This document shows positions 29,484-35,563 of a stretch of 35,571 nt of DNA, in pieces. The notes below the pieces were generated by a model. It saw only the letters and a program-made list of their open reading frames with translations. It was not told the origin of the DNA and made no database searches. Numbering within the stretch: position 1 is the stretch's first letter; every line of letters starts with the position of its first letter. This DNA comes from Solirubrobacterales bacterium. GTDB taxonomy: Bacteria; Actinomycetota; Thermoleophilia; Solirubrobacterales; Solirubrobacteraceae. The position numbers and the translations under genes were made by a program. The DNA lies in NCBI GenBank assembly GCA_038258125.1, contig JBBSQG010000001.1, forward strand, positions 1 to 35,571, written 5' to 3'.

Positions 29484-30116
29484 ATGAGCATGAGCCCGCG
29501 CCTGCGCTCCTTCGCCGAGCTTGTCCTCATCGTCGCCGCAGCGCTGTTCTTCGCGCTCGCGATCCAGGCCTACGCGGTCAAGCCGTACGTCATCCCCTCC
29601 GAGTCGATGGCGCCGACGCTCATCGTCGGCCAGCGGCTGCTCGTCGACCGCTTCTCGCACCGCCTCGGCGCGGATCCGAAGCTCCGGGACATCACGGTCT
29701 TCACGCCCCCGGCGGGGGCCGAGCTGACCGATCGCCAGTGCGGTGCCGCCGGCGAGGGCCCGTCCTACGATGGCGGCGCGGCCAGCCGTCGCTCCTGCTC
29801 GCGCGCGACGCCGGGCCGGGCGACGAAGGCGTTTGTCAAGCGCATCGTCGGGCTGCCCGGCGACGTCATCGAGGTGCGGGGCGGCCACGTCGTACGCAAC
29901 GGTCGCGTCGCGCGCGAGCCGTTCGCCACGCCGTGCGGCGGTGGCCCGGAGTGCGATCTGGGAGCGATCGTCGTCGCCCCCGGTCACTACTTCCTCATGG
30001 GCGACAACCGCGGCAACTCCGACGACAGCCGCTACTGGGGCCCGGTCGCGCGCGACCAGATCATCGGGCGTGCCGTCGTGACCTACTGGCCGTTGGGCCG
30101 CTTCGGCGGGGCCTGA
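29484..30116 (+). CDS. lepB: Signal peptidase I
   Basis: N-terminal TM. Box B IPSESMAPTL (catalytic Ser), box D VKRIVGLPGD (catalytic Lys), box E GDNRGNSDDSRYWGPV. Confidence 0.9.
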   Translation: MSMSPRLRSFAELVLIVAAALFFALAIQAYAVKPYVIPSESMAPTLIVGQRLLVDRFSHRLGADPKLRDITVFTPPAGAELTDRQCGAAGEGPSYDGGAASRRSCSRATPGRATKAFVKRIVGLPGDVIEVRGGHVVRNGRVAREPFATPCGGGPECDLGAIVVAPGHYFLMGDNRGNSDDSRYWGPVARDQIIGRAVVTYWPLGRFGGA

Positions 30117-30140: not shown

Positions 30141-30980
30141 TCACAGGCAGAACGCCGTGAGCTCGCGCGCGACCCCGACGGGGTCGTCGTAGCCGATGAG
30201 AAACCCGGTCCCGGGCAGAACGCGCAGCTGCCCGTCGGGCAGGTGCTCGAGCGCCTCCTCGGCGCCGGCCAGCGGGTGGTAGCGGTCGCGGTCGGCCCAC
30301 AGCAGCAGGACCGGCGCCGCGATCCGCGGGTAGGCCTCCAGCAGATCGTGCTGCGCCCCCGCCGGCCAGCGCCGTACCCAGCGCGACCACGAGCGGGCGA
30401 GGTTGGCGTTGCCGGCGACGTCGGCCGTGGCATGGCGCAGCAGGTCGCGCGCGGCCGGGTTGCCGCGCGCCGTGAGCTTCATACCCAGCTCTGGCCGGTA
30501 GGCGAAGCGCACGGCCCGCGAGGCGGCGCGGTCGAGGCCCGGCAGCGATGCCGCGGGGGCGATCGCGCGCAGCGGCACGGGCAACCGCGAGCGCGTCGGC
30601 GAGCAGTGCAGGCGGTTGGGCATCAGCACCATGCGGGCGGGCGCCAGCTGGCCAGTCACGACGGCGCGCAGAAGGATCTCCGCGCCCGCACCGTGGCCGC
30701 CGACGAGCGGGTGGGCACCGCACGTCTCGCGGCAGAAGGCGGCCATGACCTCGGCCAGCCAGTCCAGCGTGTACGGATGACGCGGGCGGTCCTCCGAATC
30801 TCCGTGCAGCGGAAGGTCGGGCAGCACGAGGCGGAAGCGGTCGGTGAGGTGCTCCACGATGGGTGCGAACTCGCGGTGCGAGAGCGCCGCGCTGTGCATG
30901 AGGCAGAGACCGGGTCCGACGCCCGCCTCGCGGTAGGCGATCCGTGCCCCGTCGCGGTGGTGGTACAGGCGCAGCTTCAT
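30141..30980 (-). CDS. Alpha/beta-hydrolase fold protein with an atypical nucleophile elbow (G-H-G-A-G)
   Basis: MKLRLYHHRDGARIAYREAG...LCLMHSAALSHREFAPIVEHL...LPDLPLHGDS...HPLVGGHGAGAEI follows the usual beta-strand/elbow order of the fold. Start at ATG 30980, in an ATGA overlap with the upstream lipoprotein gene. The track start at 31109 is an Arg-rich extension. Confidence 0.75.
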   Translation of the reverse strand: MKLRLYHHRDGARIAYREAGVGPGLCLMHSAALSHREFAPIVEHLTDRFRLVLPDLPLHGDSEDRPRHPYTLDWLAEVMAAFCRETCGAHPLVGGHGAGAEILLRAVVTGQLAPARMVLMPNRLHCSPTRSRLPVPLRAIAPAASLPGLDRAASRAVRFAYRPELGMKLTARGNPAARDLLRHATADVAGNANLARSWSRWVRRWPAGAQHDLLEAYPRIAAPVLLLWADRDRYHPLAGAEEALEHLPDGQLRVLPGTGFLIGYDDPVGVARELTAFCL

Positions 30981-31456
30981 CCGCCGCGCTCGCCCGCGCG
31001 CTGCCCGCGCCGCAGTGCCGCCGCGGCGGCCGGGCGCCCACCGTCCTGGAGGGCAGCGAGCTGGCCCACGCGCCGCGCGAGCTGGTCGGCGATCCCGCCG
31101 CTGGCGCACTGCGCTCCGGCCTGCACCGCGCCCGCGAGGTAGCCGAGCTGCAGCGCCGCGCCCGGCTCAGTGCCGGCCCGGACGCGCAGCGCGTCGGCGG
31201 CGCCGCCGAGTGACAGGCCGAGCGACTGCAGGTCCCCGTCGGTGCGCGCGGCGCTGACGCAGCGCGAGAGGCGCGTGCCGTCCGCGAGTGCCACCGCGGC
31301 GGGCGCCTGGCGCAGCGCCGCCAGCAGCGCGGCGGGCTCGGCGAAGCATGCGCTGGGCACCGGGTCGGGCTTCTGCGTGCAACCTGCCAACGGCGCGGTG
31401 CAGGCCACGACGAGGATGCCGATGCGGGCGAGCGTTGCGTTGCCAAGGGGCCGCAC
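30977..31456 (-). CDS. Hypothetical lipoprotein
   Basis: Signal plus lipobox (IGILVVACTAPLAGC). Ala/Leu-rich, helical-looking mature part with 3 further Cys. Translationally coupled to the hydrolase gene. No family recognised. Confidence 0.55.
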   Translation of the reverse strand: MRPLGNATLARIGILVVACTAPLAGCTQKPDPVPSACFAEPAALLAALRQAPAAVALADGTRLSRCVSAARTDGDLQSLGLSLGGAADALRVRAGTEPGAALQLGYLAGAVQAGAQCASGGIADQLARRVGQLAALQDGGRPAAAAALRRGQRAGERGG

Positions 31457-31563: not shown

Positions 31564-32979
31564 CTACTCGTCTGCCGGCTTGGCGGCCCCCGCTCCGACT
31601 GCGCTTGAGCCGTCGGCCGGGTCCATCGCGACGGAGTCGGCGATCCGGCTCTCGATCGCGAGCTCGCGATCGAAGTCGGCGAGGTCGGCGTGGCGGTAAT
31701 CCATCCCGCGGCCGGCCAGCAGCGATGCGAGCGCCTCGACGTAGCGCTCGTCGAGTTGGCCCCCGGCGACGCGACGCAGCTCGGTCATCGCCTGGAAGGA
31801 CGTCATCCGGTCGCGGTAGGTGTCCTGCGTCGTCAACGTGTCATAGACCTCGGCGACGGCGACGATGCGCGCGATTGCGGGGATCTCGTCGCCCTTGAGC
31901 CGACGCGGGTAGCCACGCCCGTCGATGCGCTCGTGGTGGGTGCGGACGATCTCCGCCACGGGGCCGTAGACGCCGAGGTCGCGCAGCAGTTCGGCGCCCA
32001 GGTCGGGGTGCTGATGGATCGCCACCCAGTCGTCCTGAATCAGCGTGCCGTGGCGTTCCATCACCCGGTCGGGCAGCGCGAAGCGGCCGATGTCGTGCAG
32101 CAGCCCGGCGGTGTGCGCGAGCTCGACCTCGCGCTTGGTCATCCCGCATTCGAGCGCGATGTCGCGCGCGAATGCGGCCACGGCGGCGCTGTGCCGCGCG
32201 GTGCGGCTGTCGCGTCGATCGAGCGCGCGCACGAGCGAGGACAGCACGCCCCACGACATCGCCGCGTATTGCTCGGTGCGCTCGCGGGCGATGACGACCA
32301 GCCGCGACATGTAGGTGAAGGCGACGATGATCAGCACGAGAAAGGCGCCGGCGGCAAGGCCGAACTCGGCGAACACGCCCGCGATCGACACGGTCAGCGC
32401 GACCGTCAGCACGAGCGACGGCAACAGCTCCCGCGGCGGTTGCACCGCCTCGCGCACACGGCCTCCGTCGAGCACCACGACGAGGCCGCTCAGCAGGACG
32501 AAGTTCAGGATGAGAAAGCCGACCGCGACGAGCGCCAGGAGCGCCAGGTCGCCGATCCTGCCCTCGCGCAGCGTTCCGACGAGATGGCCGTAGAGCAGCG
32601 CCGCGAGCATGTTGGGAACGGCGGACGCCGCGAGGTTGATCGGCAGCGCCCGCGTGCGGTAGGGCCGCGCCTGCTGGCGCAGGCGGCGGGCGCCGAACGT
32701 CACGAGCTCAGCGACGACCGCGATGGCAAACGCGCCCACCGGACCGATGAACGCGACCGCGAGCATGAAGCAGACAAACGCCGCCGAGATGTCGATCGCG
32801 CCCTCCCAGACGGACGCGAACAGGACGCTGACACAGGCGCCGACGGCGAGCGCGAGCGTCAACGGGTCATAGAGCTCCGCCAGCGAGGAGGTCAGCAGGG
32901 CGGGTGCGGCCGCGAGCAGGATCACGATCGCCGCGATCACGGCGATCCTCGGCTGCGCAGCGCGCGGCGCGCGATTCAC
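31564..32979 (-). CDS. Membrane-bound HD-GYP domain protein (putative c-di-GMP phosphodiesterase) with a multi-TM N-terminal sensor region
   Basis: About 6-7 hydrophobic helices in the first ~215 aa. The HD-GYP module follows: HSAAVAAFARDIA, LLHDIGRFALP, HHERIDGRGYPRRLKGDEIP, RIVAVAEVYDTLT. Confidence 0.85.
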   Translation of the reverse strand: MNRAPRAAQPRIAVIAAIVILLAAAPALLTSSLAELYDPLTLALAVGACVSVLFASVWEGAIDISAAFVCFMLAVAFIGPVGAFAIAVVAELVTFGARRLRQQARPYRTRALPINLAASAVPNMLAALLYGHLVGTLREGRIGDLALLALVAVGFLILNFVLLSGLVVVLDGGRVREAVQPPRELLPSLVLTVALTVSIAGVFAEFGLAAGAFLVLIIVAFTYMSRLVVIARERTEQYAAMSWGVLSSLVRALDRRDSRTARHSAAVAAFARDIALECGMTKREVELAHTAGLLHDIGRFALPDRVMERHGTLIQDDWVAIHQHPDLGAELLRDLGVYGPVAEIVRTHHERIDGRGYPRRLKGDEIPAIARIVAVAEVYDTLTTQDTYRDRMTSFQAMTELRRVAGGQLDERYVEALASLLAGRGMDYRHADLADFDRELAIESRIADSVAMDPADGSSAVGAGAAKPADE

Positions 32980-33105
32980 GCCCGAAACGCTACCGCCCGC
33001 CGCCCAGCTGCTCGGTTGGCCGCTCCAGCCGGCGGGCCGCTCCGCGTCAGTCGACGCGTAGCGGCGCGATCGGCGGCGGCCGGCCGATGCTCGACTTCGA
33101 GCACG

Positions 33106-33195
33106 TCAGTTGACCCGGAACGCACCGCCGGTGGTAGCCAAGATGGTGACGGTGGCGATCAGGGCGGTGTAGGCGCGGTACTTGAGAGCGGGCAT
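33106..33195 (-). CDS. Micropeptide B, 29 aa: MPALKYRAYTALIATVTILATTGGAFRVN (predicted single TM)
   Basis: My own translation; it falls below the ORF-track length cut-off. ATG 33195, TGA 33106-33108. The start is 1 nt after the stop of micropeptide A (TGAcATG). It is a paralogue of A, with the differences mostly synonymous or conservative. Confidence 0.6.
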   Translation of the reverse strand: MPALKYRAYTALIATVTILATTGGAFRVN

Positions 33196-33196
33196 G

Positions 33197-33286
33197 TCAG
33201 TTGACCCGGAACGCTGCGCCGGTGGTGGCCAGGATGGTGACGGTGGCGATCAGCAGCGGGTACGCGCGATACTTGAGCTGCGACAT
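33197..33286 (-). CDS. Micropeptide A, 29 aa: MSQLKYRAYPLLIATVTILATTGAAFRVN (predicted single TM)
   Basis: My own translation. ATG 33286 is preceded by GGAGG (33293-33297) at 6-nt spacing. High GC3. It has a tandem paralogue immediately downstream. Confidence 0.65.
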   Translation of the reverse strand: MSQLKYRAYPLLIATVTILATTGAAFRVN

Positions 33287-33652
33287 GTGGAACCTCCGGA
33301 GCGGTGGTTTGGTAGACGATGCCTAACGTAGCCCTTCGATCTGGCACCTAGAAGCGAGGTTGGCCAAACCGTCCTGGGGGCAGGCGGTCTCCCCGCCCAA
33401 AGTGCACGAGATCGCGCCACGCAGGTTGAACAAAGCCGTGGTCGCGCAATTCGGTCTTGCGTTCGCCGGCGCGACATGCCTGCGCCACGCGCGCAGAACA
33501 TGCACCCGGCAGCGCCAGCGCGGTCGGCTCGACCTCGGCCCGGATCAGATTGCGCCTGCAGGCGACGAGAGGACGACATTGGGGCGGTCAAAGGTGTGCA
33601 ATTCCCATCGGCGCCGTTTGCATCGTGCGAGGCCAGCGCGGATGATGGCGAC

Positions 33653-34558
33653 GTGCGGACCCTCAAGACGAGCGAAGCAGCGGCGCTGCTGCACGTCAGC
33701 CCGAACACGCTGCGCGCGTGGGAGCGGCGATTCGGATACCCGAAGCCACAGCGGTCGGCCGGGCGCCACCGTCTGTACACGCACGGGGAGGTCGCGGCCC
33801 TCCGCGACGCCCTCCAGCAGGGGCTCTCGATCTCGTCGGCGGTCAGCCGCGCCCGCGAGGCGTTGAGCACCGACACGCATACGCTCGTCGGCGCGCTCGC
33901 CGGCTTCGAGCTCGATCGGGCCGACGCCGCGATGGAGTCCGCGCTGGCACTGCGCTCGGTCGAGCGCTCGGTCGAAGAGGTCCTGCTGCCGTCGCTCGAC
34001 GAGCTCGGCCGACGCTTCGGGATCGAGAGCGCGCCGTGGGCGTTCGCCGCGCGCTGGGCCAATGGCTGGCTGCGCCGCGCCCAGCGTCTGGCACCACCGC
34101 CCGTCCGCCGCCTCGCGATCCTCGTCGGCGACGCGACCCGCAACGAGCTCGATCCCGACGCGCTGTCGGTGCGCGCGTTCGAGCTGTTCTGCGGGCGCTC
34201 GGGCGCTCGCGTGATGGCGCTGCCCGTCGGCAGCGTCTCGGGCTTGGCCGACGTCGTCGGCTCGCTGGCGCCCGACGCGGTCGTGATAGCCGGCGGTCAT
34301 CTTCCCGACGACGATGTCGCGCTCTGGGCCTACCGTGTCCGCGCGACTGCAGGACCGGTGCCGATGGCGCTGTTTCGCAGCGCTCACCATGGGGCGCGCG
34401 TACACACGACCGGCACCCGGATCCTCCCCGACGCCCCGTTCAGCGCCCACCGTCAGCTGCTCGCCCTCGTCGACGACCGCCGGCCCGTCGTCGAGCGCCG
34501 CGGCGCTCCGCTAGCGCTGCCCGATGCCGATCGCGAGCGCCGCGAGGCACAGCGGTGA
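33653..34558 (+). CDS. MerR-family regulator of the CarH/LitR type (HTH plus helical bundle plus Rossmann-like B12-binding-like domain, with degenerate cofactor motifs)
   Basis: HTH LKTSEAAALLHVSPNTLRAWERRFGYPKPQRSAGRHRLYTHGEVAAL matches the CarH/LitR signature (WERRYGFP-x-P-x-R-x-x-G-x-R-x-Y). The C-terminal RRLAILVGDATRNELD...ARVMALPVG...DAVVIAGG resembles the B12-binding Rossmann layout. I favour the start at GTG 33653, where GC3 rises; the track start at 33476 is unsupported. Confidence 0.8.
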   Translation: MRTLKTSEAAALLHVSPNTLRAWERRFGYPKPQRSAGRHRLYTHGEVAALRDALQQGLSISSAVSRAREALSTDTHTLVGALAGFELDRADAAMESALALRSVERSVEEVLLPSLDELGRRFGIESAPWAFAARWANGWLRRAQRLAPPPVRRLAILVGDATRNELDPDALSVRAFELFCGRSGARVMALPVGSVSGLADVVGSLAPDAVVIAGGHLPDDDVALWAYRVRATAGPVPMALFRSAHHGARVHTTGTRILPDAPFSAHRQLLALVDDRRPVVERRGAPLALPDADRERREAQR

Positions 34559-35043
34559 CCCGCCGCCTGCATGCACTGCGGCCGGCCGACGTCGACGAGC
34601 GCGGTCACGAGCTCGTCTCGTTCTGCGGGCATTGCTGCCAGCGTCCTGAGCGCGCCGCGGCGCCGCAGCCCTCGCGGGTGTGCGGCCACTGCGGGCTCGG
34701 GCTGATCCTGCAGGCCGACATCGACCTCGCGCCGCGCGCCGACGAGGCGTTCCTCGTGGTCGACAACACCCTTTCGGTCTGCGCGCTGTCGGCGACCGCC
34801 GAGCAGCTGTTCGGCGTCGACGAGACGGACGCGGTCAACAAGCACATCGCCGAGTTCCTCGTCCCGGCCGACGCCAACGCGCCCAGCGCGGACAACCTGC
34901 TCGCCCTGCTCGTCGACGTCGCGAGCGGCTCCAGCGAGCCCTGCGTCACCGTGGTGCGGCCGCGGCAGGAGTTCGGCGTGCGCTTCTGGGCGCGGATCGG
35001 TCCGTGTGGATCGCCGCGCGCCGCGCTGCTCGTCCTGTCCTGA
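34555..35043 (+). CDS. Zn-ribbon (CxxC...CxxC) plus PAS-like domain protein, translationally coupled to the LitR-like gene
   Basis: The GTG at 34555 overlaps the regulator's TGA (GTGA). High GC3 throughout. FCGHCC-x16-CGHCG is followed by FLVVDNTLSVCALSATAEQLFGVDETDAVNKHIAEFL...VTVVRPRQEFGVRFWARIGP, a PAS-like beta-sheet pattern. It is hidden in the track inside the composite ORF 33718..35043. Confidence 0.7.
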   Translation: MTRRLHALRPADVDERGHELVSFCGHCCQRPERAAAPQPSRVCGHCGLGLILQADIDLAPRADEAFLVVDNTLSVCALSATAEQLFGVDETDAVNKHIAEFLVPADANAPSADNLLALLVDVASGSSEPCVTVVRPRQEFGVRFWARIGPCGSPRAALLVLS

Positions 35044-35107
35044 GGACTTCGGGGCCGATGTTCCGTAACCTTTGGACATCGATCCCGGTTCGTCTCGACC
35101 ACGGGGC

Positions 35108-35563
35108 GTGCGACGGACCTCGAGCGAGAACCCATTGAGCGTCTTACGCACCCACGCCGCCGCGGCCATGTTGGGCGTCAGCCCGAACACGTTGCGGTCC
35201 TGGGAACGCCGGTTCGGATATCCAACCCCGCGCCGCACGGCCGGCGGCCATCGCCAGTTCGACCTGGCCGAGATCGAGGCACTGCGCCAGGCCTTCGAGG
35301 AGACCCACAACGTCTCGTCGGCGATATCGATCGCCCGCGAGCGCGGCAGCGGCCCGTCATCGCCGACGCGGTTGCGGTCGGCGCTGCGCCGCTTCGAAGA
35401 GCTGGAGGCCGATCGCATCCTGGAGGAGAGCCTCGCCGTGGGGGGGGGGGGGGGCGCCGGGGGGGGGGGGGGGGGGGGGCGGGTGAGCGGCGGCGGCAGC
35501 GGCGAGGCGGCGGCGGCGGCGCGCGGGTCGAGCGCGACGCACCCGTCGGCCGAACCGCGCTAG
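35108..35563 (+). CDS. Second CarH/LitR-type MerR regulator (paralogue of 33653..34558); its 3' part is corrupted by poly-G and low-complexity sequence
   Basis: LRTHAAAAMLGVSPNTLRSWERRFGYPTPRRTAGGHRQFDLAEIEAL...LRRFEELEADRILEESLAV parallels the first regulator up to 35440. The reading then becomes GGGGGAGGGGGGG... The start is ambiguous (TTG 35072, GTG 35108, TTG 35135). Confidence 0.55.
   Translation: MRRTSSENPLSVLRTHAAAAMLGVSPNTLRSWERRFGYPTPRRTAGGHRQFDLAEIEALRQAFEETHNVSSAISIARERGSGPSSPTRLRSALRRFEELEADRILEESLAVGGGGGAGGGGGGGRVSGGGSGEAAAAARGSSATHPSAEPR
35440..35479. repeat. Two long G homopolymers (15 G at 35440-35454; 21 G at 35459-35479), followed by (GGC)n-like low complexity
   Basis: Counted directly from the sequence. 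They lie about 100 nt from the window end. Confidence 0.95.

Follow-up and report, generated by a model that had tools for sequence, protein, structure and literature searches.

MgrB and SafA are small membrane regulators of the sensor protein PhoQ, and KdpF, CydX and AcrZ are small subunits encoded together with their membrane complex. In addition, very short hydrophobic peptides, often in tandem copies, are known from type I toxin arrays such as ibs/sib and ldr/rdl. Annotation systematically under-represents small membrane proteins, and few are known outside Proteobacteria and Firmicutes. A further microprotein, DimA of Pseudomonas aeruginosa, is light-induced and acts with its C-terminal WTF motif on the protease AlgW (PMC12780092), and conserved small open reading frames (ORFs) lie upstream of annotated genes in mycobacteria (PMC4633059). 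The subject of this study is a pair of tandem micropeptide genes, here called A and B, in a stretch of 35,571 nucleotides (nt) from a Solirubrobacterales bacterium (assembly GCA_038258125.1, contig JBBSQG010000001.1, positions 1 to 35,571), which as a whole is referred to as the window. Comparisons with relatives identify A and B as real protein-coding genes under purifying selection. Their family, previously undescribed and restricted to Solirubrobacteraceae and related Thermoleophilia as far as seen, is encoded immediately upstream of a predicted membrane-bound HD-GYP phosphodiesterase of cyclic di-GMP (c-di-GMP).

The pair is defined by the following features:

33197..33286, minus strand: micropeptide gene A, 29 codons with ATG start and TGA stop, encoding MSQLKYRAYPLLIATVTILATTGAAFRVN; the canonical copy.

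33106..33195, minus strand: micropeptide gene B, 29 codons with ATG start and TGA stop, encoding MPALKYRAYTALIATVTILATTGGAFRVN; the tandem paralogue of A.

33293..33297, minus strand: Shine-Dalgarno (SD) sequence GGAGG, 6 nt 5' of the ATG of A.

Both genes are arranged head to tail, with a single nucleotide between the TGA of A and the ATG of B (TGAcATG). Tandem Repeats Finder describes the pair as a repeat of period 91 with 1.9 copies, 88% matches and a score of 282, and a 91-nt direct repeat covering A and B was also recovered by a separate repeat search. Nine codons differ between the copies, four of them synonymously (TAT/TAC, GCG/GCC, CTG/TTG, GCC/GCT), while the five non-synonymous changes affect residues 2, 3, 10, 11 and 24. 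An original prediction, made by reading the letters of the window, had described paired 29-codon ORFs on the minus strand, the 91-nt unit, the GGAGG and the TGAcATG junction, all of which were found as claimed on re-reading, and recomparison of the codons returned the same counts. The same prediction had called the genes invisible to the ORF track, which does not hold for gene callers in general, since both peptides and many of their relatives are already called in a public protein collection.

An open frame by itself proves nothing here, because several frames stay open by chance in DNA of 72% GC: over the stretch of the micropeptide ORF, frames +3 and -1 are open in 17/18 and 16/18 sequences, respectively. 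The coding evidence was therefore drawn from relatives. Four related loci came from a scan of representative genomes (Solirubrobacteraceae and other Actinomycetota metagenome-assembled genomes), four from a metagenome scan, nine from the regions upstream of HD-GYP orthologues and seven from peptide homologues. The examined set contains 21 distinct related loci; the tabulated coding set comprises 18 sequences from the 15 closer loci and the window. An ORF of 29-32 amino acids (aa) with an ATG or GTG start and the same stop position is present in all 21 distinct loci, usually preceded by a GGAGG-like SD, and the GGAG of the SD of A is invariant in the upstream alignment of 14 loci. None of the related loci carries a frameshift in the micropeptide ORF, and the sense frame has no internal stop in any of the 18 tabulated sequences.

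Furthermore, the substitutions follow the pattern of a translated frame. Variable columns at codon positions 1, 2 and 3 number 15, 11 and 23 of 29, a three-base periodicity that fits the sense frame only, and pairwise Nei-Gojobori ratios of non-synonymous to synonymous substitution (dN/dS) among the micropeptide ORFs lie mostly at 0.05-0.3, with 0.11-0.24 for gene A against its orthologues and 0.26-0.51 for gene B. The codon for Ser2 is TCN in most loci and AGC in L002. The GC content at third codon positions (GC3) is 0.79-0.97 across the micropeptide ORFs (A 0.93), as compared with 0.92 in the HD-GYP gene. The antisense frame that shares the wobble positions is broken in 10/18 sequences by stops whose underlying substitutions leave the sense-frame peptide unaltered, which rules out antisense ORFs over the repeat (e.g. 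33201..33326, plus strand) as genes. RNAalifold found no conserved base pair over the micropeptide ORF and an Rfam search of 32700..33800 gave no match; an RNA element was ruled out on these two results. The claim that A and B are paralogous coding units selected at the level of the peptide is thus borne out by dN/dS, codon periodicity, GC3 and the lack of conserved RNA structure, and since the reading frame is intact throughout the relatives and no RNA structure was found, the repeat is not a case of conservation at the level of nucleotides or structure only.

A, B and their relatives are present in a collection of 15 billion proteins, where they are unnamed or labelled 'hypothetical protein' (e.g. 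MEA2155411.1). A family profile built from 25 members and run exhaustively against 1.84 billion cluster representatives retrieved 62 clusters (50% identity) at E<=1e-3, nearly all of them either of 29-32 aa or gene calls over-extended at the N-terminus, with the match at the C-terminal end. The family consensus is MxxLKxRxYPxLIAAIGVxAATGGxFRxx, in which A20 is invariant, K5 and G23 are kept in more than 90% of members, and R7, Y9, P10 and R27 are conserved among the closer members. For a set of 42 sequences (A, B and 40 members), Pfam and NCBIfam gave no match beyond isolated noise at E<=1, no profile match to KdpF, CydX, entericidin, Hok or other described small-protein families was seen, and the profile of the set matched no PDB chain, in agreement with the original statement that no family could be recognised. 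An artificial concatenate of A and B used as a protein query returned no match, though both peptides are in the collection. One apparent fusion, the 393-aa member P0128 in the 90%-identity cluster of the 29-aa P0127, is actually a thiolase and a clustering artefact. Literature searches on small proteins of Solirubrobacter and on HD-GYP-linked small proteins found no description of the family, and a search on LitR/CarH with c-di-GMP found nothing relevant.

Structurally, the peptide resembles a marginally hydrophobic helix that would cross the membrane once in the N-in orientation. AlphaFold2 with the family alignment models a single helix over residues 2-28 at a mean predicted local distance difference test score (pLDDT) of 82.8. 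With Kyte-Doolittle means of 1.75 for A and 1.56 for B, the best 17-residue window, P10-F26, lies close to the customary threshold, and this segment is hydrophobic yet rich in Thr, Ala and Gly. The basic residues K5 and R7 precede it and R27 follows it, while A20 and G23 (with G24) may form a small-residue face of the kind used in helix-helix packing.

The gene immediately downstream, on the same strand, encodes an HD-GYP orthologue in every related locus, and on its other side the micropeptide gene faces a divergent regulator of the MerR family. These two neighbours are as follows:

31564..32979, minus strand: HD-GYP gene, 471 aa, seven-helix transmembrane (TM) domain followed by an HD-GYP c-di-GMP phosphodiesterase domain.

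33626..34558, plus strand: MerR1, divergent MerR-family regulator with a CarH/LitR-like helix-turn-helix (HTH) and helical bundle.

The order of MerR1, divergent, then peptide, then HD-GYP holds even in the most distant members found; it is still kept in distant loci where the HD-GYP TM domain is merely 34-55% identical to that of the window and MerR1 is 69-90% identical. The domain search confirmed that, as described earlier, the micropeptide genes precede a multi-TM HD-GYP gene on the same strand and have a divergently encoded MerR regulator on their other side. The recurrence next to HD-GYP and LitR-like genes that the prediction proposed to look for was seen in the related loci, with tandem arrays in some.

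The 471-aa protein matches Pfam HD_5 (PF13487) at 6.7e-37 and NCBIfam HDIG, its translation contains the motifs LLHDIGR and DGRGYP, and in Foldseek its AlphaFold2 model matches PA4781 (4r8z), DvhD (9rbz) and PmGH (4mcw); it is therefore assigned as an HD-GYP c-di-GMP phosphodiesterase with predicted activity. Its seven N-terminal helices (residues 1-230; 32290..32979, minus strand) are modelled at pLDDT 85-94 and correspond to no Pfam family. They weakly resemble the S components of energy-coupling factor (ECF) transporters such as ThiT and FolT (Foldseek probability 0.9-0.99, TM-score about 0.5-0.58, E 0.2-1), and the model hints at a membrane sensor that may bind a small molecule.

MerR1 carries a MerR HTH (1e-9) and a B12-binding_2 match at 5.6e-4, which with 20.5 bits falls under the 23-bit cut-off, and its residues 66-181 align to Thermus thermophilus CarH (5c8d, 3whp) with E of about 2e-12. 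The alignment to CarH ends before the C-terminal Rossmann B12-binding domain (PF02310) with its His lower ligand, which was undetected in MerR1 and 120 homologues, and MerR1 appears to lack the specific Trp, Glu-His and His residues of the B12 motifs. Of the CarH/LitR-like character attributed to this regulator earlier, the similarity of HTH and helical bundle thus stands, while the Rossmann domain is not detectable, so that sensing of light or B12 cannot be assumed, although some pipelines label MerR1 homologues 'light-induced transcriptional regulator'. Wherever the sequence of a locus reaches far enough upstream, MerR1 adjoins the micropeptide gene, with L001 as the only exception. In this locus (L001 5197..6000) MerR1 is lost and the PAS-like gene of the module (see below) faces the peptide gene directly; the TAnnnT hexamer of the candidate promoter P1 (see below) is missing, and the peptide and HD-GYP genes are kept.

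Beyond MerR1, the module continues with two more genes on the plus strand:

34555..35043, plus strand: gene for a 162-aa protein, overlapping the MerR1 stop and co-operonic with it; two CxxC pairs and a zinc-ribbon-like N-terminus.

35072..35563, plus strand: MerR2, second MerR-family regulator, whose ORF extends to the end of the window.

The 162-aa protein has no Pfam family and gives sub-threshold PAS matches; it is 56-90% identical in all loci reaching that far. MerR2, with 78-98% identity across loci, far exceeds both MerR1 and the HD-GYP protein in conservation, and a MarR regulator gene comes after it in related loci. Across the loci, the neighbours comprise MerR, PAS-like, MarR, HD-GYP, alpha/beta hydrolase, fumarase and GH2 proteins, and MatE in some. 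Downstream of the HD-GYP gene, the alpha/beta-hydrolase gene (30141..31109, minus strand) is syntenic in related loci, where a gene for a protein of about 150 aa, called only there, is syntenic with it. A type I signal peptidase (S26) gene (29484..30116, plus strand), also downstream of HD-GYP in the window, is not syntenic in related loci.

The regulatory sequences around the micropeptide gene point to two separate promoters, one for the peptide (P1) and one for the HD-GYP gene (P2), with the following candidate elements:

33325..33330, minus strand: candidate -10 hexamer TACGTT of P1, inside GGGCTACGTTAGG, about 38 nt 5' of the ATG of A.

33396..33407, minus strand: GTGCACTTTGGG, a conserved block in the alignment of upstream regions and a possible regulator site or -35 element.

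32987..32992, minus strand: candidate -10 hexamer TAGCGT of P2, 7 nt 5' of the HD-GYP GTG (GTG at 32979).

A TAnnnT hexamer lies 38-52 nt 5' of the first ATG in 15/19 loci and is followed by a C/A-rich leader and the SD, so placed that P1 is the putative promoter of the peptide gene; a simple sigma-70 promoter scan returned nothing on either strand. The element GTGCAnTTTGG is located about 70 nt 5' of the -10 hexamer in close relatives, and in the distant loci L020-L024 it occupies the -35 position with a spacer of 18-19 nt, like MerR-type promoters. A second TAnnnT is found 6-7 nt before the GTG or ATG of the HD-GYP gene, without an SD, in 14/15 loci (the window, L002-L004, L009, L012-L014, L016-L018, L020, L021 and L024), against a background for this hexamer of 0.0007 per position in these sequences. 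Leaderless promoters have 6-7 nt between the -10 hexamer and the start codon. Given this spacing and the lack of an SD, the HD-GYP gene is probably transcribed from a promoter of its own, P2, situated in the short spacer that follows the peptide gene, and its mRNA would be leaderless. In mycobacteria, which belong to the same phylum, about a fifth of transcripts begin at a start-codon RTG (PMC4633059). Neither a terminator nor a conserved hairpin was found between the peptide gene and HD-GYP, so that read-through from P1 into the HD-GYP gene is possible, on which the latter would not depend.

The number of peptide genes at the locus is variable. Most related loci have one copy, the window has two, L011 three, L019 four and L018 five, and the ancestral state is one copy. 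The HD-GYP protein of L011, with its three peptide copies, is 87% identical to that of the window. The arrays of L018 (2728..3179, five copies) and L019 (951..1311, four copies) are located on metagenome contigs with near-identical flanks, which indicates a recent expansion or contraction of the 91-nt array. Their internal copies differ only slightly in nucleotide sequence. Successive copies are 1 nt apart (TGAcATG) or overlap (ATGA). Internal array copies end in TTC CGA GGC AAC TGA, so that the next ATG is preceded by an SD-like GAGG. In terminal copies the codons are CGC GGA instead, with no such GAGG. The first copy of an array retains the N-terminus of the family, while the last copies diverge (e.g. 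Y6D in L018).

In the window itself, B deviates from the near-invariant P10 and from the usual N-terminus of the family, and the dN/dS values of B and A (0.26-0.51 compared with 0.11-0.24) indicate that B is under relaxed constraint. Immediately after B, a further frame is open:

32976..33104, minus strand: 42-codon open frame with a GTG start right after B (TGAcGTG), whose TGA overlaps the GTG of HD-GYP.

The first 40 nt of this frame match the repeat unit at 21/40 positions, in register, and it may, by this weak resemblance, be a decayed third copy. It was rejected as a functional third gene coupled to HD-GYP, because a hydrophobic segment is missing and other loci contain nothing that corresponds to it; in single-copy loci, the gap between peptide and HD-GYP is only 43-85 nt. 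The locus does not represent a fixed two-gene device, given 1-5 copies in relatives, a relaxed B and a possible decayed third copy. Because array length varies and surplus copies diverge, the pair in the window is better understood as a snapshot of gene birth and death.

Taken together, we favour, with moderate confidence, a reading in which the peptide, as a single helix in the membrane, acts as partner or modulator of the HD-GYP TM sensor and is expressed from its own promoter, regulated by MerR1 and adjusted in dosage by amplification. The peptide would enter the membrane in an orientation that leaves the basic N-terminal end (K5, R7) in the cytoplasm, and its face of A20, G23 and G24 would pack against the transmembrane sensor domain of the HD-GYP protein, thereby tuning the activity or the stability of the enzyme. 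Expression of the peptide would be set by the divergent MerR-type regulator. Tandem amplification between one and five copies would alter peptide dosage, and copies in excess, B and the remnant behind it among them, would drift and decay. The original suggestion of a small membrane modulator of the HD-GYP protein thus stays the best reading, drawn as it is from synteny and the features of the peptide.

Several observations weigh against it. The hydrophobicity of the peptide is only moderate and, with a segment so rich in Thr, Ala and Gly, it might not insert into the membrane unaided. If the HD-GYP gene has its own promoter, the two proteins are not obligatorily co-expressed, and five peptide genes per one HD-GYP gene are unlike the need of a 1:1 subunit. 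Furthermore, a five-gene module is conserved as a whole, and synteny therefore cannot single out the HD-GYP protein as partner over MerR1, the PAS-like protein or MerR2, nor can it separate a partner of HD-GYP from a peptide that acts independently of it.

In its most far-reaching form, which we put forward only tentatively, the proposal would make the peptide the first small protein known to serve a c-di-GMP phosphodiesterase as subunit or regulator, binding an ECF-S-like seven-helix domain, with control of the MerR/LitR type and the 91-nt array of 1-5 copies as a dosage rheostat. We know of no small-protein partner of an HD-GYP enzyme, and a literature look-up found none either.

As the main alternative, it is possible, though in our view doubtful, that the gene encodes a MerR-controlled membrane peptide, stress-induced and membrane-active or toxin-like, which acts independently of HD-GYP, their adjacency reflecting a common regulon or module. 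Such a peptide would be expected to have the promoter-like element and SD of its own that are seen here, next to an HD-GYP gene apparently served by a separate leaderless promoter, and the higher conservation of MerR1 (69-90%) than of the HD-GYP TM domain (34-55%) in distant loci is in line with it. The tie to a MerR regulator is further suggested by GTGCAnTTTGG at -35 with the 18-19 nt spacer of MerR-activated promoters in those loci, and by L001, which is without both MerR1 and the P1 hexamer; in this same locus, however, the peptide gene stays with HD-GYP though MerR1 is gone. Tandem multi-copy arrays are typical of type I toxin genes, but gaps of 1 nt have no room for antisense RNAs or promoters of each copy, and the A20, G23 motif suggests helix-helix packing and not membrane disruption. 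Pfam and NCBIfam showed no similarity to known toxin families. Nothing positive speaks for the toxin-like role considered in the original prediction.

Translation of the ORFs might itself control the expression of HD-GYP, in which case they would be cis-acting leader peptides, an explanation that we judge improbable. Their location does fit, as they are 5' of the HD-GYP gene and co-directional with it, just 22-126 nt away and with no intervening terminator. In the window, only the stop of B interrupts the frame that leads from B to the HD-GYP start, and the last open frame ends in a GTGA overlap. Purifying selection, however, spans the full peptide with helix-like conservative substitutions, beyond any stalling motif, and runs of regulatory codons are absent from the ORFs. 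Structure predictions point the same way, with intergenic z-scores near 0 in 5/7 loci and no RNAalifold pairs in the ORF; a terminator or attenuator between the peptide gene and HD-GYP was discarded as a candidate after a terminator search and a cross-locus structure comparison. The TAnnnT at 6-7 nt from the HD-GYP start in 14/15 loci, without an SD, argues for independent leaderless expression, and amplification to five copies fits an attenuator poorly. The leader-peptide device offered originally is thus unlikely, no attenuator-like structure being conserved.

Still less probable, to a degree that leaves it barely tenable, is that the genes are multi-copy substrate genes for precursors of a secreted or modified signal, similar to pheromones or to ribosomally synthesized and post-translationally modified peptides (RiPPs). 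Tandem arrays of near-identical short genes and a peptide rich in Thr, Ser and Gly would suit such precursors, but conservation extends over the full length with no division into leader and core, and the peptide has no Cys and no cleavage motif. A MatE exporter gene adjoins in some loci, inconsistently across them, and no RiPP-modifying enzyme, peptidase-transporter or other hallmark was found in any neighbourhood inspected, which agrees with the absence of RiPP enzymes noted at the outset, in the window as well as among the neighbours in related loci. Finally, the repeat could be non-coding, a duplicate of some regulatory or RNA element or a frame left open by the high GC content, for which the common chance-open frames described above could be invoked; this is effectively refuted by the conserved positions of start, SD and stop, the substitution periodicity, dN/dS below 1, the Ser2 codons, the gene-like GC3 and the lack of RNA structure or an Rfam family.

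With 62 clusters, some 29 residues and an invariant neighbourhood, the family supplies an obvious candidate partner and a candidate regulator, and can serve as a test case for micropeptides in the second-messenger signalling of soil Actinomycetota. Moreover, the variation between one and five copies, together with the decaying surplus copies, offers a compact natural illustration of how micropeptide genes are born and die.

Among the described systems, the micropeptides share several properties with MgrB and SafA: a length below 50 aa, a single hydrophobic helix, predicted in their case, a site of action thought to be the transmembrane or periplasmic part of a signalling protein and a regulated promoter of their own, here a putative one. 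They differ from these regulators in that there is no sequence similarity, that the presumed partner is an HD-GYP phosphodiesterase and not a histidine kinase, and that the micropeptide gene adjoins that of its presumed partner and is tandemly amplified. With KdpF, CydX and AcrZ they have in common a size of about 29-37 aa, one helix, here a predicted one, a gene beside that of the large membrane protein presumably bound, and a moderate hydrophobicity compatible with a stabilising subunit. Unlike them, the micropeptides have no Pfam or NCBIfam match and occur in 1-5 copies, and an obligatory operon with the partner is improbable given the separate leaderless promoter.

The arrays of ibs/sib and ldr/rdl resemble the present ones in their very short hydrophobic peptides and frequent tandem copies, whereas the micropeptide copies, 1 nt apart or overlapping by ATGA, leave no space for promoters or antisense RNAs of each copy, the first copy has a strong SD, the synteny with a signalling module is invariant, and there is no sequence similarity. 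DimA (PMC12780092), like the micropeptides, is a conserved hypothetical microprotein; it acts within a signalling cascade, and an environmental signal induces its expression. Its sequence is unrelated, and it belongs to another organism and pathway. The small ORFs of mycobacteria (PMC4633059) are, like those described here, actinobacterial and conserved 5' of a larger gene; leaderless transcripts and small proteins missing from annotation are frequent in this phylum. They represent another family, and in the present case the micropeptide ORF is leadered with an SD, while the downstream HD-GYP gene appears to be leaderless. The family itself is undescribed, yet the type of object, a short protein with one helix whose gene adjoins that of a membrane signalling protein, is a familiar one.

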